A program made the translations under genes and the position numbers. The notes beneath the pieces are model-generated. The model saw only the letters and a list, made by a program, of their open reading frames with translations, had not been told where the DNA came from and ran no database searches. A stretch of DNA of 26,095 nucleotides from a virus (lineage: Duplodnaviria; Caudoviricetes), in IMG/VR virus record IMGVR_UViG_3300048575_000470, positions 1-26,095 of that record, one strand, 5' to 3'. Positions 3,235 to 26,089 of the stretch are shown here, piece after piece; the stretch's first letter is position 1, and every line of letters begins with the position of its first letter.

Positions 3235-6200
3235 TCATTTGGTGTTTTGAAGGATTTCTACAGAAACGGACTTGACGTGCATCGTGTCGCCGCTCGTATT
3301 GAACAGCCACGGCAGCACCTGCGTGTACCAACTGGACGGAATGCGGCAGCGCGCGATGATTGTCTGATAGATGGCGTTTGACCCGGTCGACACCGCGACC
3401 ATGCTCTCGTCCATGTACTGGTATTTTCCAATGATGGTGTTCTTCACCATGAAACCTGCGCGCATCGTGACCTGCGATGAAGTCTGCGGCTGATAGGTGC
3501 ACATGAACTGCATAACGATTGTGGCGGAGGCGCCGTTCACGTTGAATGGAATAGAGTTGCCGGTGCTGATCGCCGTGATGGTGTTGGCTGGGAGATCGAA
3601 CTTTGTCGCTGGCATATCGGGCACAGCGCTCGGCTGCTCCGCCAACCCAGGCCACCAATTCGTGAGCTGTCCAGACGTCCAGAAATTCAGGTTGGTTAGG
3701 CCGCCTGTCTGAATGCGATCGAGGATCAGCATCTTCGTGGCACCATCGAAGGCCGCGAAGGTAGTTCCGTCATCAGCAACGAATGATGTTCGGGAAGCAA
3801 CGATGTCGATGTAGGACAGGCCGTTCTTCACCTTCAAGAACAGACCTGCAGTTGCAGAGTTGCCGCCAGAGGTTCCTGATGCGGTGATTGCGACCTGGGA
3901 GTCGTAGCCTGTCGGCGCGGCCGTCGCAGCAAATCGGATATAGCCGCCGGCATAGATGTTACCGACCTTGGCGTCGATGCCATTGACGGTCGTGATCGAG
4001 GCATAGTTCGCGGCCGCCGATGCTTGCGTAAGGTAGTTCGCAGACGCGCTGGCCTGGGTCACATAGGTTGAAGAGGCATCGGCCTTCGTCAGGTAGTTTG
4101 CGCTCGCCGTCGACAACGACAGATAAGTCGAGGACGCGTCGGTGGTCTTAAGGTATGTGCTCGCCGCTGCGGTAGATGTCAGGTAGGTGCTACCCGCTGC
4201 CGATTGGCTCAAATAAGTTGAAGCCGCGTCGGCCTGCTTGAGATAGGTGTTCGCGGCAGAGGTCTGGTTCAGGTACGTCGACGACGCGTCCGAGATCTTC
4301 AGGTAATTTGCGGTGAGATCTGACTTCGTTTCGTAGTTTGCCGCAGCCGACGCCTGCGTGAGATAGGTGTTCCCAGCCGCGCTTTGAGACAGGTAGGTAG
4401 ATGAGGCGGACCCAATCGTCAGGTAGGTGGATGCCGCAGTTCCGGACGGCAGATAGGTCGCTGTCGCAGAGGCCTGCGTCAGGTACGTGTTCCCTGCCGC
4501 TGTTGTGGTCAGATAGGTCGAAGCAACGGTGGATAGGACAGCATTGTCAGCAGCGATGAACGCTGTGTCCCGAATATCATTCCAGGCGGCGTTCAATCCC
4601 CACTGATAGGGATGATTGGCGTCGTCGGTGTCGAACCACAGATCACCAACCGCCAGCGCGGCCGGCGCCGAGGTCTGGGCGAAGGTACGGTTCTTGGAGT
4701 TGGCGGCACTCGACACCAGCGAGACGGTCGATTGAGTCGCATAGTTGCTCGCCGCAGCCGTTGTGGTGAGGTACGTGGTCGAAGCCGCAGACGCCGTCAG
4801 ATAGGTGGACGACGCCTCTGATTTCGAAAGATACGTGCTGCTGGCCGACGACTGGGTGAGGTACGTGTTTCCAGCGGCCGTTTGAGACAAATATGTAGTC
4901 GCTGCGGCCGCGATCGTCAGGAACGTCGCCGCAGCATCGTTCCTGCTCTGATAGACGAGCTGCGCTGTCGATTGCGACAGATAGGTGTTCGCAGCGGCGG
5001 TTGACGATAGATAGGTCAACGCTGCCGCGGTGACCGACAAGTAGGTATCGCCCGCATCCACCTTGGTCAGCATCGTGTCGAGGCGCCGAGCCAAGGCAGA
5101 ATTTGGACCGGTAGCCATATCGATCTGCGACGCAATTTCCGCGAAAGCTGCCCCGGTCGCCGACGATATCGATGCTCGGACGGACTGAAGGTCAGTAGCG
5201 CTGCCGAGCAGGCCAACCGACGCCGCCAAAATAGCGGCTTGCATCTTGTCAATCAGTTCACGAGAGGAGGCCGCTGCCTCACTCGCAAACTGATTGGCGG
5301 CCTGCTGCGCGGAGGACGCTTCTTCCTTGGCTTGATCGGCGGTGTTTTTCGCCGCGATAATAGCGTCCTTTACGGACGGCGCGAGCTTGTCCTCGTCGAC
5401 ACCTTCATTCGGAACAGGGTCGTTTGCAAGCCTAGCGATAGTTTCATCATCGATCGCCCTGCGAACCGTCGGTGTAAAGTGACTAGTCGCGATCGGCTCG
5501 CTCAACGAGCGCGGTGTGACTTTCGGGTCCCATGGCGGTATAACCCCGCCATCAGCCAGCAACTCGGGAGCGTAGGGAATGCATGTGAGGTGGGCGGTTT
5601 GGTCCGCCTTAACGCCCACACCCACGAGCAACGCCTGAAGCGTTTCATTTCCGGCCACACCGAACACACAGTGATTGCCAACCACCGGTGCAGCTGCGGG
5701 CGCACGCGGGGTGACAAGCGTCAGCGTGTCGGTGGTACCTGCAACAGTTACAATTGACATAAGACCGATCGAGGAACCGCGCTGAGCCTTCAGCACATAG
5801 GATGTGCCTTCCTCCATCGGAACTTCTTCGTCGATCACAAAACCGGTGACATAGCCGTCGTCTTCACGCGTCAGCACTTGCTTGATACGCGTGCCGCGAA
5901 TTCCAACCAGCATGCGGGGATGCGCGACATCGACACGTGCGCCCCACGGCGCGACCAGCCCTTCGCGATCGCAATCCCAGTCGTAGGTTTCCGGCCGGTG
6001 CGTGCGCTGATGAATATAGCGCCAGCCATAAACAAAGGCTTCAGCCGCATCGGTCTTGGTGTCCGTATGGATTGCCTCGATCGCCGTGGCGTTGCTCGCA
6101 TCGTATCCGTCAGCATAGACGGTGCGAACCTCCTTTTGATAGCCGGATGCAGCGTCGTAGAAGCTCACATTTACGGCGTGCAGAGGCTCTGGGAATGTGA

Positions 6201-14333: not shown

Positions 14334-14935
14334 GGCCGATCCCCCAGCAAGGCAGCTTCAAGGTGGCGACCGGCAAGGGCGCTGATCTCGTTCGCGTTAT
14401 CAGCACTCATGCCGAGATATGGGCGCGCGTGGATGTAGACGTCGTGTTCGGGTATTTCGACATGGCTCTCAAATGTCGCTTTCGACTTCTTTACGAAGCG
14501 GTAGAGGGACATGTCGACTTTCTCGCCGAAAGGCGTGTTGGCCGCACGTTCGAGTTTTTCCTTGCTGCGGTAGATGCTTTGGGATCGCGCATAAACCTTG
14601 TAGCGATTGCCAAATTGCATCGCGGCGGCATAGACACGGTTCGATCCCTGTTCGACGCCGCCGCCGGGCAGAATGTTGTAGGTCTGGCTCGCAAAGAGAA
14701 ACCCTTCTTCGTAGAGCGTTTGGCCTCCAGTCCGCTTCGCGCGTTGGGACGGCAGCCAGGGCGTGCCGTCCGGCTCGGACTGTGTGTCGAACCGCATCTG
14801 TGTGTGGCTGACAAGCGAATGGCCAACAGCGTCCCAAAACTCATCAGATTGGCGCTCACCGAACGTCTTCAGCCGTTCGCAGGCGTCGCGAACCATGGCG
14901 TCATCCCATTCGATTTCGAGTACCGCGCCGGTCAT
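14330..14935 (-). CDS. Virion morphogenesis protein (Mu gpG / tail completion S family)
   Basis: Motifs T..RF..Q..PDG.PW.PS, GSNRVYAA.MQFG and I.ARPYLGMS. Confidence 0.88.
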   Translation of the reverse strand: MTGAVLEIEWDDAMVRDACERLKTFGERQSDEFWDAVGHSLVSHTQMRFDTQSEPDGTPWLPSQRAKRTGGQTLYEEGFLFASQTYNILPGGGVEQGSNRVYAAAMQFGNRYKVYARSQSIYRSKEKLERAANTPFGEKVDMSLYRFVKKSKATFESHVEIPEHDVYIHARPYLGMSADNANEISALAGRHLEAALLGDRP

Positions 14936-15351
14936 CAGAAGTCCTTCAGGCTTTCACGGGTAAAGATGCGGGGCGGAGCCGTAACGATGATGGTGTCGGC
15001 TGGCTGGGTGGCCGGTGCCGCCGCATCCTGACCAATGAGCAGCGAGCGGCCGTCAGCAACACGACGCAGAAAGACGAGCTGGTCCTCATAGTCCTTGCGT
15101 ACGCGGTCGCTGCACGGGTCAGACAGATGGTAGCGCGCAATGGCGCATGTGATGTTGGCGAGCTGTTCGGTCTGATTGATGATGCCGGTGAGCTTGGCTT
15201 CCGAATTGACTTCTGCAGTCGCGTTTTCGAGAGCCTTGGTCAACACGCTCTCATCGATGACACCGGCGGGCGGGTTTGCGCGATCGGTAATGGCGATCAC
15301 CTCTTCAAGCCCGAAGCGGTCAATCATGTCCTGCTTGGTGGCGTACGCCAT
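14935..15351 (-). CDS. Mu gp36-like head-tail adaptor (DUF1320)
   Basis: The likely start is ATG at 15351 (MAYATKQDMIDRFG) with SD GGGAG. Motifs C.IARYHL and V.KDYE....FL..VADG. Confidence 0.9.
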   Translation of the reverse strand: MAYATKQDMIDRFGLEEVIAITDRANPPAGVIDESVLTKALENATAEVNSEAKLTGIINQTEQLANITCAIARYHLSDPCSDRVRKDYEDQLVFLRRVADGRSLLIGQDAAAPATQPADTIIVTAPPRIFTRESLKDF

Positions 15352-15384
15352 TCTTTGCCGCTCCCGGATGCTCTCGATCAAAGT

Positions 15385-15499
15385 GGGGACGGCGATCCAG
15401 GCCGATCACCGCCCCCTTTCACTCTCGTAGGCGCCGGGCTTTTGCCCTTGTTGGTTCCACCGTGGCCTGACCGGCGCGCCCTCTTCGCTCTCGGGGGAA
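15385..15499 (-). ncRNA. Putative structured RNA directly downstream of the tRNA (multi-stem, loop-loop pairing); 3' hairpin may also act as a terminator
   Basis: Folded by eye: GGGCGC/GCGCCT, GCCG/CGGT, GGGC-AAAA-GCCC and a 13-bp hairpin 15416-15404/15397-15385. Loops CAGGCC and GGCCTG are complementary. Confidence 0.5.
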
Positions 15500-15501
15500 T
15501 T

Positions 15502-15578
15502 TGGTTGCGCGGGTCGGATTTGAACCGACGACCTCTAGGTTATGAGCCTTGCGAGCTACCGAGCTGCTCCACCGCGCG
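15502..15578 (-). tRNA. tRNA-fMet (initiator, anticodon CAT), 77 nt, encoded CCA
   Basis: CGCGCGG TG GAGC AGCTCGGTA GCTC G CAAGG CTCATAA CCTAG AGGTC GTCGG TTCAAAT CCGAC CCGCGCA A CCA. Full cloverleaf with initiator determinants C1xA72, A11:U24, G30-C40 and G31-C39. Confidence 0.96.
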
Positions 15579-15585
15579 TAATCGG

Positions 15586-15933
15586 TCAGGGCCCTTTCGA
15601 CTTGGCGATCAGGTCGCGAAGCGCCTGGCGCCGCGCGTCCTTGCTACCGAACGGCTTCGGGTCGATGCCCTGCGAAGTCAGAAGCTGGCCAAGAGCATCG
15701 AACCCGAGCGCATCGATTTCGCCCTCGGTCGGCAACGAATTACCGCCACCTTTATCGCCCGTGTTCTCAAGCGGCGAGGACGAAGGGGCGAGCTTGACCG
15801 CGCCCGAGTTGATCATACGTTTGGAAAGGGTGTCGGGAAGCTCGATGCTGTCGCCTTCGCTGTAGATCTCACCATCGTGATGGATCGCCGTCAATGCAAT
15901 GCAGGCGATCAACGTGCTGGTCAATTTTGCCAT
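15586..15933 (-). CDS. Head-associated protein after major capsid (Mu gp35 / lambda FI-like position)
   Basis: 115 aa. N-terminal HDG.IY.EGD.IEL......GAV motif, a linker, then a short helical HeH/LEM-like C-terminus. Confidence 0.7.
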   Translation of the reverse strand: MAKLTSTLIACIALTAIHHDGEIYSEGDSIELPDTLSKRMINSGAVKLAPSSSPLENTGDKGGGNSLPTEGEIDALGFDALGQLLTSQGIDPKPFGSKDARRQALRDLIAKSKGP

Positions 15934-15945
15934 GCGAAGCGCTCC

Positions 15946-16878
15946 CTACGCCGCCGCGTCTTCGAAGAAGTAGCCGCAGCTCGACGCCACAACTCTTTCG
16001 TCAAGACACTTCACCGTGCGCGCAACCTCCGCGCCGTAGGCGCCGATCGAGCTGTCGGTATAGGTGCCCGCAACGGTTTGGCCGTATTTCGCGGTCCAAC
16101 CGAAGGTGAGCCCACCCATCGGGTCCGCCATCGGATCGATGAAGAGCATCGCCATGTGGTTGCCCCACAACCGGCTGAGGCTGGCCGTCTGGCCCGGCTT
16201 CGCGGTGTTGTAGCGCGCCGCACCGACATAGATGTTCTTGACTTCCAACAGCTCGGCAACCGCCTGCTTGGAAGCCGCACCGCTATCGCCCGAATTCCTG
16301 TTCGTCGCTGCGACGATGGTCGGGTTTTTGCGGAATGCCGTCCATGCGCCCTGGCCGAACACCAGCGAGTTCGGGCGCACGAGCGGAACGTCGAGTGCCG
16401 ACAACGCGAGCGACAGCGCATCGCAGCTCGCATGGCTGAACTGGCTCGTGCCAGAGAGAACTGTCCGGTTCGCTGCCGGATAAGTGGTGCGCGCGAAAAC
16501 CTTCGCCGCTGTGCGCTGTTCGTGACCGATATCGACGAACTGCGTCGCCTTCGCGGTGGCGCGGTCCAGCGGGTTCGGAACTTTGAGTTTGAGGGCGGCA
16601 TCGATGTCGCGCACCGGCACGGGAATTTCAAAGCCAAAGTCGTTGCAGCCGCCGGTCTTTTCGACGCCGCCGAGTTCGCCCTGCGGGACCTTGCCGCGAC
16701 GGCCGACCAGTGTGTCGGGAACATTGAACGGCTCGTCGGCCGGATATTCGAGATACTTGTATTCCTGGGTCAGCACCGTCACTTCGGGCAGAACCAGATC
16801 GGCGATAAACTCGGCATTGCGATACGCAATCGCGATACCGGTCAGCGCGGCGGAAACAGTGAAAGGCGTTCTGGACAT
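15946..16878 (-). CDS. Major capsid protein
   Basis: The likely start is ATG at 16878 (SD CAGGAG), giving 310 aa. LT.IAIAYRN..FIAD.VLP, RPN.LV.G and G.TFGWTA motifs. Follows the protease and decoration genes. Confidence 0.9.
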   Translation of the reverse strand: MSRTPFTVSAALTGIAIAYRNAEFIADLVLPEVTVLTQEYKYLEYPADEPFNVPDTLVGRRGKVPQGELGGVEKTGGCNDFGFEIPVPVRDIDAALKLKVPNPLDRATAKATQFVDIGHEQRTAAKVFARTTYPAANRTVLSGTSQFSHASCDALSLALSALDVPLVRPNSLVFGQGAWTAFRKNPTIVAATNRNSGDSGAASKQAVAELLEVKNIYVGAARYNTAKPGQTASLSRLWGNHMAMLFIDPMADPMGGLTFGWTAKYGQTVAGTYTDSSIGAYGAEVARTVKCLDERVVASSCGYFFEDAAA

Positions 16879-16902
16879 AAAAATCTCCTGCGCCAAGCGC
16901 GG

Positions 16903-17313
16903 TTAGCCAGCCACCGCGGGCGTGGTGACCTGCGTGCGGGCGAGATGAACGAGGATGAAATCGCCGTCGGCGGTCGCGGCTGAATAGGCAGTGCCGCCGC
17001 TCTGTGCCTTCGCGCCAGCGGCTGGCGTGCACGTTACGGCCTTGCCGTTTGCGTCGGACGTCACATACGCGCCGGCAGCAATGGCGCCTCCGGCTTCGAT
17101 TTCGGCGAGGCCTTCAAGAACCACGTCGAAGTGGTCACCATCCGCGGCGTCGATGTTGGGAACGCTTGCCCCCATCATAAGATCGGACGAGGCCGACGCT
17201 TGCACATAGTGCTGATCGCTGACCGTCGCATCGCCGGTCTTCGAGGGACGCACGAAGCGCCGAGACTTGATCGCGCCAACGGCGATCCTGGTAACCGTCA
17301 GACCGGGGTTCAT
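16903..17313 (-). CDS. Capsid decoration/cement protein (DUF2190-like)
   Basis: 136 aa. DVVLEG.AEIEAGGAIAAG..VTSDANGKAV and A.ADGD.I.V motifs. Confidence 0.82.
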   Translation of the reverse strand: MNPGLTVTRIAVGAIKSRRFVRPSKTGDATVSDQHYVQASASSDLMMGASVPNIDAADGDHFDVVLEGLAEIEAGGAIAAGAYVTSDANGKAVTCTPAAGAKAQSGGTAYSAATADGDFILVHLARTQVTTPAVAG

Positions 17314-17816
17314 TTGGGTTCCATCTCCTTTTGGACGTGACGAACGGCCTCTTCCGGGCTGACCGCGATGCCCTTCGCCGCCTGTTCGGCGACGTACGCT
17401 CGCGCCTTGGTGCCGAGCAATTCACCGAACGCAAGCTGATCGGACGGGACGCCTTCGACCTCGCCATCCGGCTTCGATACTTCGGCGAAGTTCACGACGA
17501 TGCCACTCTGCGAGATCAGGCCGCGGAAGTAATCGCGTGGCGATTGCTCCTTCTTGGCATCGCCTTCTCCGAACGAGATGGTGCCTTCGTGATCCAGGCC
17601 CGCCATAAAGGCGAGAACACCATCGCGCGCGGACGGAACGAGCACGCCCTTTTTGACCAGGCCATCGACCAGTGCCACGTCGGCGTCGGTGCGGACCTTC
17701 TTGGCCGCTTCGGCAAAGGACAAGTCCCTCGCTTTGGCGTCATCTTCACGCTGCTTAAGCGCAGCCTCGCGCGCGGCCAATTCGGCTTCGCGTTGTTCGG
17801 CGGTTTTTTCGCCCAC
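17310..17816 (-). CDS. Nested in-frame scaffold protein (Mu gpZ-like)
   Basis: AGAGGAG-CCCAAG-GTG at 17816, in frame with the protease and opening a coiled-coil (EQREAELAAREAALKQRE). 168 aa. Confidence 0.65.
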   Translation of the reverse strand: MGEKTAEQREAELAAREAALKQREDDAKARDLSFAEAAKKVRTDADVALVDGLVKKGVLVPSARDGVLAFMAGLDHEGTISFGEGDAKKEQSPRDYFRGLISQSGIVVNFAEVSKPDGEVEGVPSDQLAFGELLGTKARAYVAEQAAKGIAVSPEEAVRHVQKEMEPK

Positions 17817-18476
17817 CTTGGGCTCCTCTCTGTGTTCGGAAAACGCGGGGTTCACCGCGCCTTCGGTGTTGGCGATGCGCGCCCGCGTGGCCGCATCTTC
17901 GATGGCGCCGACATCCCAATCGGCGATGACCTTGTTGGCCTCATCGAGACCTTTATCTGCGATGAGAAAATCGCGGATAGATCGGAAGAGACGCCCGACC
18001 GTATCGAGCACCCAGCCCATGTCCGGGCCATCGGCGAATTCGACAAGCCCCGCATCACCATCGGCGAAAGAAACGGGCCGAAGCCCTTTCACGGCTGGGG
18101 GCTGCGCGCCGAGAAACCCGACATGCCGGAGATAGTATGTGCCGGGGCACGGGTTGTTTGCGCTGTTCGGCTCATAGAACGATGCCGAGACCTTTTTAAA
18201 TCGGCCGGCGCGCACGATGTCGACAAAGCCTGCGTCGATGTCGTCGCCAAACTGAGCGACCAGCGTGCCATTCGAGACGGAAAGCCTCTTCACCCAACCA
18301 TAGGCGGGCGCATTACCTTCAGGATGACCGATGACCGCGGGCGCCTCATGCTTGGCCGGATCGTAGGCCGCAGCGCTCTTGGCAAGGTCAGCGTCCGAAA
18401 ACGAAACTTCGCGGCCGTCCATCGCGATGTGACGGCCAGCGCGGAAGATGTCCACTAAGGGGTTTTTCAGCGTCAT
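17310..18476 (-). CDS. Prohead protease/scaffold (Mu gpI-like)
   Basis: Motifs IFRAG.H, HEAP.VIGHP...PAYGWV, FKKVSASFY and YLRHVGFLGAQPPAVKGL. The start is either ATG 18476 or ATG 18488, and neither has a clear SD. Confidence 0.9.
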   Translation of the reverse strand: MTLKNPLVDIFRAGRHIAMDGREVSFSDADLAKSAAAYDPAKHEAPAVIGHPEGNAPAYGWVKRLSVSNGTLVAQFGDDIDAGFVDIVRAGRFKKVSASFYEPNSANNPCPGTYYLRHVGFLGAQPPAVKGLRPVSFADGDAGLVEFADGPDMGWVLDTVGRLFRSIRDFLIADKGLDEANKVIADWDVGAIEDAATRARIANTEGAVNPAFSEHREEPKVGEKTAEQREAELAAREAALKQREDDAKARDLSFAEAAKKVRTDADVALVDGLVKKGVLVPSARDGVLAFMAGLDHEGTISFGEGDAKKEQSPRDYFRGLISQSGIVVNFAEVSKPDGEVEGVPSDQLAFGELLGTKARAYVAEQAAKGIAVSPEEAVRHVQKEMEPK

Positions 18477-18510
18477 GGCCCGTAACATGGCCTGAGCCGG
18501 ACGGGTCGTG

Positions 18511-18789: not shown

Positions 18790-19620
18790 TCATGCCCCGG
18801 GGCAACGCAGACTCCCCCGCATCAGGGACAACCGGGCGCGCTGGCGTCGGATGATGCGCTCGGCAAAGCCGATATCGCCCCCTAACGCCCTCAGGAGCGC
18901 CACGCCGGGGTTATAGCCAAACCCGGGGTCGATACCTTTCGGGACACGGGTGACCTCGCCGGTGCGCTTGTTGGTGAAGTCGACAGCCCCCAGATCAGGT
19001 GCCTCCATTTTGATGCGGCCTGATTTCTCCAGCCTCGCAAACATTGCATCCGAAACCGGGATCACGCTGCAGTGACACTTCCAGGCATTGGGTGGGTAAT
19101 GCGACAGCCACCACGGATCATCCACGGGCAAACATATGCCGTCCCACGCTTCATGTTCGGCACGCGGATGCCGACTGAAGTTGTGCTTGTACATGAGGTA
19201 CGGGATGTCGGCCTTATTACGCTCGATCTGGAGCCAGCGGCCGGCGGCATAAGATTGCCGAAGGTTGGTGTCGTAGATGATATCGAGCCGTCGCACTGAT
19301 CCCAACCGGCTCTCGACCCACTTGCCGCTCGCAGGATCGTAAGCGGGGCCCGTTCCCCACCATCCCTTATCCTGCAAAATTGGAATGAGCTTTTTCGACC
19401 AGCTTTCGTACGTCTCGCCACTCGCAATCGCATCTTCGATGGAACTGCCGATATCGCCAAGCACATCGTGGCCAGCGGTTTTGGCGACCGTGAACGCAGT
19501 GGAATGCTCGTGCTGCCATAGATCGAGCCAAGAAAATTCCGGCGCCGGCCGATCTAGACGCTTCGCGAACGCCTTCAGAGCATCTTTCGGCGTCAGGTTG
19601 CGGACGACGAGTTCTGGCAT
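18790..19620 (-). CDS. Minor head protein MuF (gp30-like), short form
   Basis: Motifs W.D.WQ.EH..AFTVAK, L..KGWWG, RRL.IIYDTNLRQSYAAGRW, HYPPNAWKCHC and GIDPGFGYNPG. Confidence 0.93.
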   Translation of the reverse strand: MPELVVRNLTPKDALKAFAKRLDRPAPEFSWLDLWQHEHSTAFTVAKTAGHDVLGDIGSSIEDAIASGETYESWSKKLIPILQDKGWWGTGPAYDPASGKWVESRLGSVRRLDIIYDTNLRQSYAAGRWLQIERNKADIPYLMYKHNFSRHPRAEHEAWDGICLPVDDPWWLSHYPPNAWKCHCSVIPVSDAMFARLEKSGRIKMEAPDLGAVDFTNKRTGEVTRVPKGIDPGFGYNPGVALLRALGGDIGFAERIIRRQRARLSLMRGSLRCPGA

Positions 19621-19621
19621 T

Positions 19622-21088
19622 TCAGGGCGCTTTCGGCTTGTCTTTTACGGTAGCGCCGATCGCACCGCCGGCCGTCGCTTGGAAAGTGGCGCCTTCAATC
19701 TTTTTGGCGAGCGCATCCACGTCTGGGTCGATCTTGGCGAGCGCGCGCCGCACATCTGCAAACGATGAGCTCTTATCGATAGCTTCTTGCGCTTGGTCTT
19801 TGATCGGTGCGATCACAGGTTCCCATTCCGATGCGAGCAGCTCGGCAATGGTGCCGATGGTATCGGTCTTCGGCGCAGCCTCGGCGAAAGCGGGGCCAAT
19901 CACAGTCGGCATCGGCGCACGCTTCGTCCAGTCGCCTCCATAGGTTTCCTGTACATAACCTTCGCTCGGCTCGAAGCCCATATCGTAAATCGTCTTGTCG
20001 CGCGTTGCGCGCTTGTCGAGATCTTCGGGATCGTCGAACAGCCGATAAACCCGAGGCGGCACGGCTCCGGGAAAATTCCATTCAGAAAGCCAGCGTGCCG
20101 GTCCCGCCATGAACGATGCGCACTGAAGGTCGGAGTCCGACTTCGAAACCTCCTCCCGCACTTCAAAATGGACTTTGCCTTGCGATAGCGACGCGCCGTT
20201 ATCGGTGGTCATAGTCTGACTCAAGATGACCTTGGAGATCGCGCCTTCCATCTTGTCGTAGAGTTGGTCGTATCCAGCTGCGCCGGATCGCGCCGCCTCC
20301 AGCAGCTCCAGCACCATATTGTTGGGGATGGCGACGGCGGCGTCGGTGGAGACTGCTTGCGCGGCGGCAAGCGCCTTATCCCTGATAGAGTTCTCGGTGC
20401 CGGGCGGAATTTTTACCACCGTCGTTGGAGCCCCGAACTTTTCCAAGAACATCAGCCAAAACTTCATGCCGTTGCGCTTGAAGTATGCTGGCCAATAGCA
20501 GTGATGGCCGAGGCCAAGCCCATAAGGAAGATCGTCGTTGTCGCCGCCGACCGTCCAGGTCCAGAACTTTTTGGGCGGCATTAACTCGCCGGTTGCCATA
20601 TCGCTGCGCGTGAGGAGACGAAGCCCGCCAGACGTGTCGAACCGAAACCGGCGCGCACGGCGCACCTGGATCTTTTCTAGGAAGACGTGGCGCCCGTCTT
20701 GCGCCCACATCGTCTCGCCGATGCCGTACCCATAGAACGTGGCGTACATCATCTTGTTGCACGCGTTGTCGAAGAGGAGCGTCGGCGAAGACAGCATTTC
20801 TCGCAAGAAATCGGCGGCCATCACCGATTGCTTATCGGTGGCTCCGGCATCGACTTGCCACTCGCGCGAGATCACCGCGAGGCGCCGTTGCTGAAAACAT
20901 GAAAACACCTGATCGTCGCGCATCACCTCCTCATAGATTTCGATCCCCGCGCCCTTGCCCGCAATGACGCTGTCCTGGTTGATTTCCAGCGGACCGATAT
21001 AGGGCTTCGTGATATCGCGGCCATCGCCCGAGACGGCGATCTCCTCCATCACCGGCTTGGCGTTCTCCGCCGATTTTTCGTCGGCCAT
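19622..21088 (-). CDS. Portal protein (Mu gp29, DUF935)
   Basis: Motifs D.QV.SC.QQRR.AV, PYG.GLG..CYWP..FK, FLEKFG.P and ISKVILSQTMTTD. Confidence 0.93.
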   Translation of the reverse strand: MADEKSAENAKPVMEEIAVSGDGRDITKPYIGPLEINQDSVIAGKGAGIEIYEEVMRDDQVFSCFQQRRLAVISREWQVDAGATDKQSVMAADFLREMLSSPTLLFDNACNKMMYATFYGYGIGETMWAQDGRHVFLEKIQVRRARRFRFDTSGGLRLLTRSDMATGELMPPKKFWTWTVGGDNDDLPYGLGLGHHCYWPAYFKRNGMKFWLMFLEKFGAPTTVVKIPPGTENSIRDKALAAAQAVSTDAAVAIPNNMVLELLEAARSGAAGYDQLYDKMEGAISKVILSQTMTTDNGASLSQGKVHFEVREEVSKSDSDLQCASFMAGPARWLSEWNFPGAVPPRVYRLFDDPEDLDKRATRDKTIYDMGFEPSEGYVQETYGGDWTKRAPMPTVIGPAFAEAAPKTDTIGTIAELLASEWEPVIAPIKDQAQEAIDKSSSFADVRRALAKIDPDVDALAKKIEGATFQATAGGAIGATVKDKPKAP

Positions 21089-22753
21089 CTAAAATCCTCC
21101 AAAGTCGTTGTGACCCGCGACCGTGCCAAAGCCGGTATGGGTGAAGTTTTCGCCGCGTCCATCGCCCATGTCGCTGTGTGTCTGGCGCGGGCCAGTGCTG
21201 GCGAAATCAATCTCTCCGACCTCGACTAGGCTTGCGGCATAGGCGAGCATCGCCGCTGGCGCGAAGTCGCCGTGACGCTCGCCGCCATCGCGATCATCGT
21301 TGTGGACGCCGTGGGGGACCATCGGCACACCGGCGATCAGCTTCACCATTGCCAGATCCGACACCAGATAATCGTCGGCCGGGAACTCAAACGAGCGATC
21401 TTCAATCGCCGCTTTCAGCTTGGGACCGTTTTCGAGATACCAGTGCTGGCTGAACTGGACACACTCAACTTCCGCCTCGCCGTACTTCTGCATCGTGACT
21501 TCGGCCAGATAGGCGCCGTTGCCAGTCTTGTCGAACTTGCCAGCGCCACGGCGGGGAAGCCGCTCGGTCACATAGAAGACAACCTGCTTCTGCTGTTCGA
21601 ACGGGACGTTTCGCATCTCAATGACGAACGGCGCGCGTCGCGTGAGATTTGCTCCGATCGCGACCGGAACAAAAATCGAAAGGTCGCCATTACGGCCAAA
21701 GTCCTGCCCGTAGGCGTGTCGATCGCGCGGATTTAGGCGAGCGATGACGGGATCGATATGCTCCTTTAGCCAGTCTGCAACGAACTTCTCGCGATAATCC
21801 TGAGGCTTTGTCGTGAACCCATCCGGACACTGCAGCCGCAAGACCGGCAGATCCTTGATGGTGCAGGCCTCGATCACAACGCGCGGTATATAGACGCCGC
21901 TGCCGAGGCTCGGCACGCAGTCAAGTTCCTCATCAGCGTGCGAGCCGTAGTTCTTGCGGATCTTCGCACGCCATGCTGCCTCAGCTTCGGGGGTCCATTC
22001 CTTGCCGGTCACAAGGCAGATGCGCTGGAACAATCCCTGTTCGACAGCCTCATCAAAGGTGCAGCGCACGACGCAGCCGATCTTCTTGCCGGACCGGATG
22101 TCTTCGATGAGCTTGTTAAACGGGTTCTCGGCGCCGTTATGCGTCGAGATCACAAGCAGCTTGCCGCCCCAGATCAACAGGGCGAACGCGGCCTTCAGCA
22201 GCTCATCAGCGTCATCGTGGAACGCGAACTCATCGAGGATGACGTAACCCTGCCGGCCACGAAGCGACCGCGGGCGGGACGTCAGCGCGACAATTTCAAA
22301 GCCGGACGCAAAGCGGATGCGAAACGCCTGGATGAAGCGGTCTACGCCTTTATCCTGACCATCCGGGAAAACGAATTCTTCGGCTGCTGTGGCAGCCGGC
22401 GCGAAGGAGCGCGCCCACATCCCACATGTGTCAATGAACTCTCGGGCCATATCGAGGTTATACCCGATATAGAGCACGTCCATTCCACCCGCCGACTTCT
22501 GCGCGCCGGCCGTCAACACCGCGTCCGCGCCGACGCCCCAGGTCGCGCCCGTGCGTCGGCTCTTTTCAGCAACGGTTAACTGGTTGACTGCCGTCGATTG
22601 GAGCAGCTCAACCTGAAACGGCATAAGGATGTCGGGAAGGTCTTTACCCTCAAGGCATGAAGGCAGCGACGCCACCGCGTTCATCCGGTGGCGCTTCCAC
22701 TCTTCCTCTGTCAGTGGCGCGCCGCTGAGCACGCCGATCGGCTCGGCGCTCAT
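21089..22753 (-). CDS. Terminase large subunit (Mu gp28-like)
   Basis: Walker A-like EKSRRTGATW, Walker B VILDE, ISTHNG, and nuclease motifs GQDFGR and HGD. Confidence 0.95.
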   Translation of the reverse strand: MSAEPIGVLSGAPLTEEEWKRHRMNAVASLPSCLEGKDLPDILMPFQVELLQSTAVNQLTVAEKSRRTGATWGVGADAVLTAGAQKSAGGMDVLYIGYNLDMAREFIDTCGMWARSFAPAATAAEEFVFPDGQDKGVDRFIQAFRIRFASGFEIVALTSRPRSLRGRQGYVILDEFAFHDDADELLKAAFALLIWGGKLLVISTHNGAENPFNKLIEDIRSGKKIGCVVRCTFDEAVEQGLFQRICLVTGKEWTPEAEAAWRAKIRKNYGSHADEELDCVPSLGSGVYIPRVVIEACTIKDLPVLRLQCPDGFTTKPQDYREKFVADWLKEHIDPVIARLNPRDRHAYGQDFGRNGDLSIFVPVAIGANLTRRAPFVIEMRNVPFEQQKQVVFYVTERLPRRGAGKFDKTGNGAYLAEVTMQKYGEAEVECVQFSQHWYLENGPKLKAAIEDRSFEFPADDYLVSDLAMVKLIAGVPMVPHGVHNDDRDGGERHGDFAPAAMLAYAASLVEVGEIDFASTGPRQTHSDMGDGRGENFTHTGFGTVAGHNDFGGF

Positions 22754-23313
22754 GACGGCTTAATTCCAAGAATGCGCTCTTTGATGGCGGCGACAGTGTC
22801 CGCCGAAAATCCAGGTGTCTTCGCGGCGACGGCCTCGACTTCATGAATTGCCTTTTGTGTGGCTTCCTTGGCCGCCTCTTGCTTGATCCTCACGATGCGA
22901 TCAGCGTCAGTCTTTCGCGCTGCGGATAACCGGTACAGAGCATCCGAAAGTCCGCGAAGCTCTTTGACGTCGATGTGAGCATCCTCGCCTTCAGACATCA
23001 CCTTCATTTGAAGCCTGAAGATTTGCTCCTGCACCATCTCGTAATTGAGCTTGGACTGATCATCGTCTGAGAGGTCGCCAAGGTCGGCGCGCAATTGCTT
23101 CACGGCTTCGCGCGAGGACCGCATCAGGCCAGCGACCTGTTCCACAGACTTGCGATATCGACCAAGGGCAGACCGGGACGGGGCATCTTCTCCGATCTCT
23201 TGCGCGAGAAGATCCCGCAACTCTGTTAGCGTCAGCGATTTGTCGGCGCATAGCGCATCAACACGAACGCGTTGCTCTGGCGGTAGTTGCTCGATGGTGG
23301 AGCGCTGGACCAT
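22750..23313 (-). CDS. Mu gp27-like small terminase (DUF3486)
   Basis: S.IEQLP N-terminus, SRSALGRY, and G.S.DT...IK.RILGI C-terminus. Located directly before the large terminase. Confidence 0.88.
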   Translation of the reverse strand: MVQRSTIEQLPPEQRVRVDALCADKSLTLTELRDLLAQEIGEDAPSRSALGRYRKSVEQVAGLMRSSREAVKQLRADLGDLSDDDQSKLNYEMVQEQIFRLQMKVMSEGEDAHIDVKELRGLSDALYRLSAARKTDADRIVRIKQEAAKEATQKAIHEVEAVAAKTPGFSADTVAAIKERILGIKPS

Positions 23314-25580: not shown

Positions 25581-26089
25581 GGCACGTACCGGAAGAACCG
25601 GTGGTGACCGATGGAGGCGAATGGCAGACCCTTAGCCCAGCCCGGCATGCGCACGGCATCGGGGTTGTAGTAGTGCGTCGTTTCGGGCAGCCGATCTTGA
25701 GCCTTGCCTGAGATCACGTCGCGGGCGAGCTGGTGGGCACGGCAGAACCGCGGGTCGCTGTGATCGACCTTCAGCGCCTTCTGGCGGTTCGGGTCGTTCT
25801 CGTTCCAGCACGAGAACTGGTGAAAGGTGCGAAAGCTCGCAAGACAGGCGCCCGCGATGGAGCCATCGCCAAACAAACTATGCGGCTTGCCGTGTTCGGC
25901 AAGGTGATCCTTGGCCAGCGCCACCCGGTGCATGATGACATAGCCGACGGCAATCTGGCCCTCTTCAGGTTCCGAACGCGCTTCGGCATAAATGGTCCGG
26001 GCGAGGACCTCGTCCTCGCCCAGGGCCGCGATGTTCCGGTCGGCATATGCGATCATGGCGGCGACAATGCGCTGCCGCCGCCGCGACAT
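25577..26089 (-). CDS. Endolysin, SleB/Hydrolase_2 cell wall hydrolase family
   Basis: Motifs LARTIYAEARSE (catalytic Glu), GQIAV..VI..RV, QFSCWN..DPN, THYY and IG.HRF. The exact start is uncertain at the window edge. Confidence 0.92.
   Translation of the reverse strand: MSRRRQRIVAAMIAYADRNIAALGEDEVLARTIYAEARSEPEEGQIAVGYVIMHRVALAKDHLAEHGKPHSLFGDGSIAGACLASFRTFHQFSCWNENDPNRQKALKVDHSDPRFCRAHQLARDVISGKAQDRLPETTHYYNPDAVRMPGWAKGLPFASIGHHRFFRYVP

Follow-up and report, generated by a model that had tools for sequence, protein, structure and literature searches.

The head operon and its tRNA gene

The window, by which is meant the whole stretch of DNA analysed (26,095 bases), contains the late half of a phage genome, with genes for gp27, terminase, a Mu-type portal, gpF, protease, cement protein, capsid, gp36, neck and a lambda-like tail (Table 1). 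The Mu-type portal, gpF, gp27 and gp36 genes lie in a Mu-like order, which is typical of a Mu-like head-packaging module and bears out the context given in a preliminary description of the sequence.

Table 1. Features of the head operon around the tRNA gene
Feature	Coordinates	Strand	Basis or remark
Mu gp36 head-tail adaptor	14935..15351	-	Pfam PF07030, phrog_195
Conserved non-coding element, ~120 nt	15376..15496	-	Shared with three close relatives lacking the tRNA
tRNA(CAU) of initiator type, recoded with respect to host tRNA-fMet; CCA present in the gene	15502..15578	-	ARAGORN and Rfam
Post-capsid ORF of 115 aa, placed as Mu gp35	15586..15933	-	No PHROG or Pfam match; weak match (tblastn) to its counterpart in L055/L056
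Major capsid protein, B3-type	15946..16896	-	phrog_1005; probable start ATG at 16878 behind GGAG
Cement/decoration gene (16903-17313) and head protease (17310-18488), upstream part of head operon	16903..18488	-	PHROG/Pfam
Mu-type gpF, portal, large terminase, gp27 small terminase	18790..23313	-	PF04233, PF06074, PF03237, PF11985

Within the head operon ARAGORN identifies a 77-nt tRNA-Met(cat), and the same gene is matched by the Rfam tRNA family (55.2 bits, E = 1.5e-9), which is the sole family match within the window. The first base of the tRNA lies 7 nt past the TGA of the post-capsid ORF on the shared strand, and its 3' end is an encoded CCA, with a further 150 nt to the ATG of gp36. There is a full cloverleaf with a CAU anticodon and a single stem mismatch, at 28x42. 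Thus the two programs and the positions uphold what had first been described, a complete tRNA(CAT) with initiator determinants and CCA just behind the post-capsid gene. Minimum-energy folding alone gave no cloverleaf (z = -1.11). A second ARAGORN call, tRNA-His at 25723-25806 on the plus strand, was rejected, as it lies antisense inside an endolysin-like ORF and has no Rfam match.

The preliminary description also held that the gene has no room for a promoter of its own. This is true of the 7-nt gap alone. A crude consensus scan gave neither a sigma-70-like site nor a terminator on the tRNA strand in the stretch from capsid gene to tRNA. Across the scanned region that scan gave 1 promoter-like site, with 1.1 expected by chance.

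The nearest cultured capsids to that of the window are B3-like, with 41-42% identity, and the four closest capsids of all have 59-65% identity. The scanned window genes include no transposase, in a window of 26,095 bases whose identical capsid is on record on a contig of 36,978 bases. L556, the closest long relative, has the Mu transposase domain PF09299, as do nine of 12 records that carry a tRNA in the head operon; the three records lacking it are only 72, 38 and 15% complete. The host of the window phage is likely to be alphaproteobacterial, because the anticodon stem has the A29-U41 form discussed below and because the sole named near homologue of gp36 comes from a Rhizomicrobium MAG (51%).

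The three closest relatives by gp36 (L555-L557) share with the window gpF (74-80%), gp36 (65-76%) and neck, and differ in portal (28-31%) and in the type of capsid. The downstream junction of this mosaic coincides with the 3' end of the tRNA. These relatives have no tRNA, yet they carry the element that lies downstream of it in the window. We therefore see the window tRNA as the terminal part of an exchanged head module.

Initiator character of the tRNA

The tRNA has the marks of an initiator: C1xA72, G2-C71, C3-G70, G4-C69, A73, A11-U24, G30-C40 and G31-C39. The determinants of the formylase are given in PMC9976931 as C1xA72, A73 and the pairs 2-71, 3-70 and 4-69 (papers are cited here and below for the parts of their text that were available), and the full set is present. 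The A11-U24 pair is of the purine11:pyrimidine24 kind, which occurs in nine of the 21 distinct phage copies described below. Two of the three adjoining G-C pairs of the anticodon stem are present (30-40 and 31-39). The third, 29-41, is A-U, which is the alphaproteobacterial form and occurs in 26 of 27 host fMet genes, so that the stem departs from the strict rule of three G-C pairs and follows that of the host class. Two features are unusual, the A28.A42 mismatch and a 5-68 pair that is flipped to C-G.

Overall identity points the same way. The tRNA matches host fMet genes at 65-68 of 77 positions, elongator tRNA-Met at 51/77 and tRNA-Ile2 at 45/77, so that both the identity marks and the overall match support the initiator type proposed at the outset. 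An elongator tRNA-Met would have a paired 1-72 and pyrimidine11:purine24, where the window tRNA has C1xA72 and A11-U24. The isoleucine determinants of tRNA-Ile2 include C4-G69, U12 and C29-G41 (PMC9976931), and at these positions the window tRNA has G4-C69, G12 and A29-U41. Across 21 of the window genes, ATA occurs 17 times in 7207 codons.

Recurrence in Mu-like head operons

The capsid-gp36 interval was surveyed in relatives, as the preliminary description had suggested. Eight protein-based searches gave 416 loci, which formed 354 groups after near-identical records were merged. A tRNA(CAU) lies in the head operon in 18 of the 354 groups of Mu-like head loci, or ~5%. This rate is rough, since some loci break off before the slot, later queries were aimed at carrier clades and a tRNA pattern was what first revealed two of the 18. 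By search, carriers made up 3/154, 10/42, 0/24, 2/47, 4/80, 2/15, 2/24 and 1/30 loci. A single-protein capsid scan gave three weak loci, and a metagenome scan 0/24 carriers. All counts are of ARAGORN calls at the default threshold; the low threshold gave ~90 calls scattered in ORFs of relatives. Rfam was kept out of the counts because it missed the tRNA of L123, for which the ARAGORN score is 124. A tRNA pattern scan of 18 of the 64 parts of a viral collection found 120 loci, seven of them beside Mu head genes, and added L288, L324 and L346. With the window, the carriers total 22 loci having 21 distinct tRNA sequences.

The carriers span two capsid families, the B3-type phrog_1005 and the Mu gpT-type phrog_371. 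The tRNA usually lies between the post-capsid gene and gp36 or a neck gene; in L170 and L182 it lies instead between the cement and capsid genes. The gap from the upstream stop codon is 5-19 nt in most carriers and 38 nt in one. In four carriers (L175, L198, L199 and L288) the stop codon of the post-capsid ORF is the TAG formed by tRNA positions 8-10, which argues for a single transcript, and cleavage by RNase P would strip the stop codon from the post-capsid mRNA. In L056 the upstream ORF appears to extend further into the tRNA gene. The tRNAs of L175 (4472-4548) and L198 (4475-4551) have a T loop with A54 and G60, unusual for a bacterial tRNA.

No other intact isotype occupies the slot in the 416 loci; with the exception of the anticodon-less tRNA of L474, the remaining ARAGORN calls score at most 104 and lie elsewhere. 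In the four cultured phages checked (B3, D108, POA1180 and vB_ThpS-P1) there is no tRNA in this region, which agrees with the earlier statement that classic Mu-type phages lack tRNA genes.

Presence is patchy. Around 95% of the related loci, including the three closest relatives of the window, have no tRNA. On a FastTree tree of 164 B3-type capsids the 11 carriers require 10 changes, a number as low being reached in 104 of 500 shuffles, and clusters of capsids at 90% identity contain carriers and non-carriers mixed. Two Jiella prophages differ by a near-precise indel of the size of the tRNA. Degenerate copies exist in L056 (one base short), L474 and L162. That the gene is a patchy, mobile cassette taken from a broader pool of recoded phage tRNA(CAU) genes, and that a conserved structured element lies downstream of it, had both escaped the preliminary description.

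Genes for tRNA(CAU) with the same acceptor stem also occur in many unrelated viral contigs (L278-L397 and L457-L472; ~430 estimated), where they are often solitary, have more than 60 different anticodon arms and lie next to varied genes. Of the 16 viral loci picked out by a pattern scan for C5-G68, none lies next to Mu head genes.

Conservation of cloverleaf and initiator identity

The phage copies vary in a manner that preserves the structure. Taken over 16 copies, 95.5% of cells are paired; both sides have changed in 12 of 21 pairs, and there are compensated changes in all four stems. The covariation score of these 16 copies is reached by none of 500 shuffles, which ignore relatedness, and it exceeds those of all the slid controls.

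The anticodon CAU, A72, A73, C3-G70, G4-C69 and G30-C40 are kept in all 21 distinct copies, and G2-C71 and the encoded CCA in 20 each. Five of the 21 copies were found by a pattern that requires several of these marks; the 16 found through proteins bear them too. Position 1 is C in eight copies, U in seven, G in four and A in two, so that 14 are mismatched with A72 and seven have a weak U1-A72 pair. The U1-A72 pair, and the lack of purine11:pyrimidine24 in 12 copies, may lead to weaker formylation. Host elongator tRNA-Met shares the formylase pairs and has U72 or C72 in those examined, and A72 is therefore the telling mark. In six copies the body is nearer to host elongator tRNA-Met than to the initiator, yet A72 is present.

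The invariant G30-C40 of the phage copies is described in PMC5389676 as the one essential pair of the anticodon stem, and the variants of 29-41 and 31-39 seen here (A-U, U-A, C-G and a third A-U) sustain E. coli according to the same paper. These comparisons show that both the cloverleaf and the positions giving identity for MetRS, formylase and P site are under selection. The initiator tRNA is among the most conserved of bacterial genes, and these natural variants, which match mutants made in E. coli, show how far it can be rewritten.

Departure from the host initiator tRNA

We compared the phage copies with 27 full fMet genes from alphaproteobacterial genomes having related prophages (29 of 31 genomes matched; partial genes and one same-genome duplicate were dropped). 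This is the comparison with host tRNA-fMet that had been proposed, made here against hosts of related prophages. The best match is 68/77. The tRNA is thus neither identical to any of these genes nor, in view of its recurrence in relatives, a recent host-identical insertion confined to one phage, the possibility that had been raised against it. The window tRNA shares with the alphaproteobacterial tRNA-fMet (the 1st-AU variant; PMC5389676) C1xA72, A11-U24, the A29-U41, G30-C40 and G31-C39 pairs, A73 and CCA, and it differs from it in C5-G68, C27-G43, A28xA42, C51-G63 and U17. The nine differences from the nearest host gene thus comprise compensated changes in the pairs 5-68, 27-43 and 51-63, the 28x42 mismatch and position 17. 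Six of the altered positions (5, 27, 28, 42, 43 and 68) are invariant across the 27 host genes.

The arm formed by positions 27-43 is identical in 26 of the 27 host genes, and not one of the 21 phage copies has it. Five of the 21 are also altered at positions 32 and 38 of the loop, and the window loop (C32-A38) is identical to that of the host. For five prophages the host genome could be read, and in all five the phage copy departs from that of its own host, whose stem is standard (in G746 the 3' side only). The departures are not confined to this arm: position 9 differs in 14 of 16 copies, the pair 11-24 in 11 and position 57 in 10, and unrelated phages show just as much variety in their tRNA(CAU) genes. 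Since change is as frequent outside the arm, and as great in unrelated phages, the departure belongs to a broad phage gene pool as a whole and by itself is no proof of evasion; drift within such a pool can yield the same picture.

An origin as the remnant of an att site was rejected. The gene lies in the middle of an operon, its 3' half departs from the host at positions 42, 43, 51, 63 and 68, and there is no integrase among the 31 ORFs scanned, in keeping with the doubt first expressed about such an origin.

Other occupants of the slot

The element of ~120 nt that follows the tRNA and precedes gp36 comprises a 13-bp hairpin and a multibranch part, and is present in L555 (5621-5758), L556 (5856-5991) and L557 (5865-5999). 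Two-sided change occurs in three of 34 pairs, in a comparison of four sequences only. A C-run at its 5' side could pair with the G-run of the hairpin, making a switch possible.

In L474 (3398-3470) a full tRNA body lies in the slot; its 3' end is eroded, and in place of the anticodon loop it has a UUCG tetraloop. The elements of L162 (4761-4788), L508 and L510 (both 3744-3771) keep the T arm, the 3' strand of the acceptor stem and ACCA (eroded in L508), the D and anticodon arms being replaced; each could be a remnant or a mimic of the top half of a tRNA. Other structured non-coding elements follow the post-capsid gene in L473 and L478 and the tRNA in L324. Rfam has no family for these or for the downstream element. 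One of them bears a motif that we take to be reminiscent of antisense RNAs of the C4/CI type. In the Jiella prophages L250 and L248 an ORF lies between the post-capsid gene and gp36 that, read by eye, we presume to be acyl-carrier-protein-like. Upstream of the head genes, L227 (1774-1853), L228 (1808-1885) and L203 (317-394, minus strand) have low-scoring tRNA-like elements on the other strand.

Possible function

Judged from the sequences compared, the gene is a selected, mobile and recoded initiator tRNA that recurs in Mu-like head operons. The tRNA would be made within the head transcript from the head-operon promoter and released by RNase P/RNase E and 3' trimming. Host enzymes would charge it with methionine and formylate it, and it would be used at the P site for initiation while virion proteins are made. 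If host tRNA-fMet is hit by toxins or defences late in infection the phage copy would stand in, the least certain step being whether the selective agent is toxin or shortage. The reading that we favour, with a probability of about 0.45, is that the recoded tRNA backs up host tRNA-fMet that has been cut or modified by toxins or defences late in infection. An altered tRNA would likely allow the phage to keep initiating when the host initiator tRNA is scarce or attacked.

Several observations are consistent with such a back-up. The gene recurs in 18/354 groups and two capsid families as the only intact isotype in its slot; its identity marks are fixed in 21/21 copies, with covariation unmatched in 500 shuffles; and the host 27-43 arm is matched by 0/21 copies, with loop positions 32/38 changed in five and departure from the own host in 5/5. 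Its presence is patchy, as judged by the 10 changes for 11 carriers and the Jiella indel, and patchy presence is typical of accessory counter-defence genes. VapC enzymes cut tRNA-fMet in the anticodon stem-loop, reading both sequence and structure (PMC7180214), and one from the alphaproteobacterium Bosea also cuts there (PMC8522696). The C5-G68 pair of the window copy lowers acetylation by AtaT to 25-50% in vitro (PMC7595197).

Against this, the window copy keeps the host loop and G30-C40/G31-C39, so that escape from an enteric-type VapC is not evident from its sequence and it may still be cut. Where the nuclease is VapC-LT2, phages are reported to refrain, in general, from encoding tRNA-fMet (PMC10264068). 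The divergence is not limited to sites of toxin contact, C5-G68 occurs in one of 21 copies and AtaT is a toxin of E. coli. The A28.A42 mismatch of the window, U1-A72 in seven copies and the missing purine11:pyrimidine24 in 12 also weigh against a back-up, as does the fact that ~95% of related loci manage without a tRNA. Genes with PIN domains occur in three of four carrier hosts and 10 of 14 control genomes, and do not separate the two.

The close rival is dosage, in which the phage supplies extra tRNA-fMet at the peak of virion synthesis to hosts with a single fMet gene, and the changes are drift under structural constraint. We regard this as possible, though somewhat unlikely. It accounts equally for the conserved identity, and it suits both a slot in the most-translated operon and divergence spread across all arms. 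A single full fMet gene is present in 5/5 carrier hosts and in 13/26 non-carrier hosts with a full copy (hand count; one-sided Fisher ~0.05), which favours dosage over toxin back-up, although draft assemblies collapse copies in rRNA operons and inflate such single-copy counts, and the carrier sample is five. For supply alone a host-identical copy would serve best, yet 0/21 match the host arm.

Alternatively, the cloverleaf could be a site for RNase P/RNase E that splits the late transcript into head and neck-tail parts and sets their ratio, leaving the tRNA as a by-product. The position 5-19 nt behind the stop of a head gene in most carriers, or overlapping that stop, would fit, as would the anticodon-less L474, the T-arm-plus-CCA remnants of L162, L508 and L510, and the other structured elements that fill the slot in non-carriers; RNase P is moreover indifferent to tRNA sequence (PMC9976931). 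Such a device would have no need of CAU, A72 or G30, yet none of the 21 intact copies has lost them and every intact tRNA in the slot is of this isotype, and in two carriers the tRNA lies between the cement and capsid genes. We consider it improbable.

Neutral or decaying cargo, with other phages or a tRNA-Met att site as its source and a tolerant gap as its place, and use in a role other than initiation are the readings that fit worst. The first would explain the presence in ~5%, the degenerate L056, L474 and L162 and the stem mismatch of the window copy, and many Paracoccus prophages do integrate at tRNA-Met(CAT) (PMC6536676); compensated changes in all four stems, a full-length gene in mid-operon with no integrase among the scanned window genes, and the same isotype in the same slot of two capsid families make it a distinctly poor candidate. 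Service as an elongator tRNA-Met, or as a lysidine-modified tRNA-Ile2 reading AUA, is suggested by the elongator-like D and anticodon arms of six relatives and by the C5-G68 pair that the window copy shares with host Ile2 genes, and is made very improbable by the far closer match to fMet, the missing isoleucine determinants and the rarity of ATA.

The back-up reading can be put more broadly, though only tentatively. Transposable phages of the Alphaproteobacteria may repeatedly plug a one-gene anti-defence cassette, the recoded initiator tRNA, into the capsid transcript, with an initiator or elongator body in which only the MetRS, formylase and G30 marks are kept and the rest is reshuffled to outrun toxins directed at tRNA-fMet.

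Relation to known systems and significance

A single tRNA(CAU) is also found in a temperate alphaproteobacterial phage, Sinorhizobium phage phiLM21, and 15 of 25 phiLM21-like prophages carry one tRNA (10 Met, four fMet and one Val; PMC12429752). The phiLM21 tRNA has A72, A11-U24 and G30-C40, and its anticodon stem is that of carrier L577; in build it matches our carriers, and we take it to be from the same gene pool. Unlike the window phage, the phiLM21-like phages integrate at tRNA genes (PMC12429752), and the phiLM21 tRNA lies after antiterminator and HNH genes and before terminase, whereas that of the window is inside the head operon. The nuclease-evading phage tRNAs of van den Berg et al. 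2023 (PMC10264068) likewise have an anticodon arm that departs from the host's, and their proposed role is to take the place of host tRNA that has been cleaved. In those tRNAs it is the loop that has changed, and phages are reported as generally avoiding tRNA-fMet; here a lone tRNA-fMet has mostly stem changes (loop in 5/21, none in the window).

The order protease, (cement), capsid, small ORF and gp36 is shared with Pseudomonas phage B3 (Beetrevirus), Ochrobactrum phage POA1180, D108/Mu and vB_ThpS-P1. Unlike these, the window has a tRNA in the head region and a lambda-like tail tip, and it is too distant for membership of their genera. Phage-borne initiator tRNA is known, as is the solitary tRNA-Met/fMet of phiLM21-like prophages. 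For the slot in the Mu-like head operon we found no report in a search of mostly open-access papers on Mu-like phages, phage initiator tRNAs and toxins. The available parts of PMC6536676, PMC12724379, PMC12482277, PMC10783043 and PMC8541194 contain nothing on such a tRNA, and the Mu-like phages described in those of PMC9769972 and PMC4236739 have none.

What tRNAs do for the phages that carry them is an open question, studied mostly in large lytic phages with many of them. Here a temperate phage of ~37-43 kb has a single tRNA, which one prophage may carry and a near-identical one lack. The hosts can be cultured (Rhodopseudomonas sp. AAP120, Jiella endophytica), and supply and toxin evasion can therefore be tested directly against each other. 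If the broader proposal of an anti-defence cassette is true, the 21 natural variants would constitute a ready-made map of toxin recognition, and would point to an undescribed defence that is triggered late and blocks initiation.
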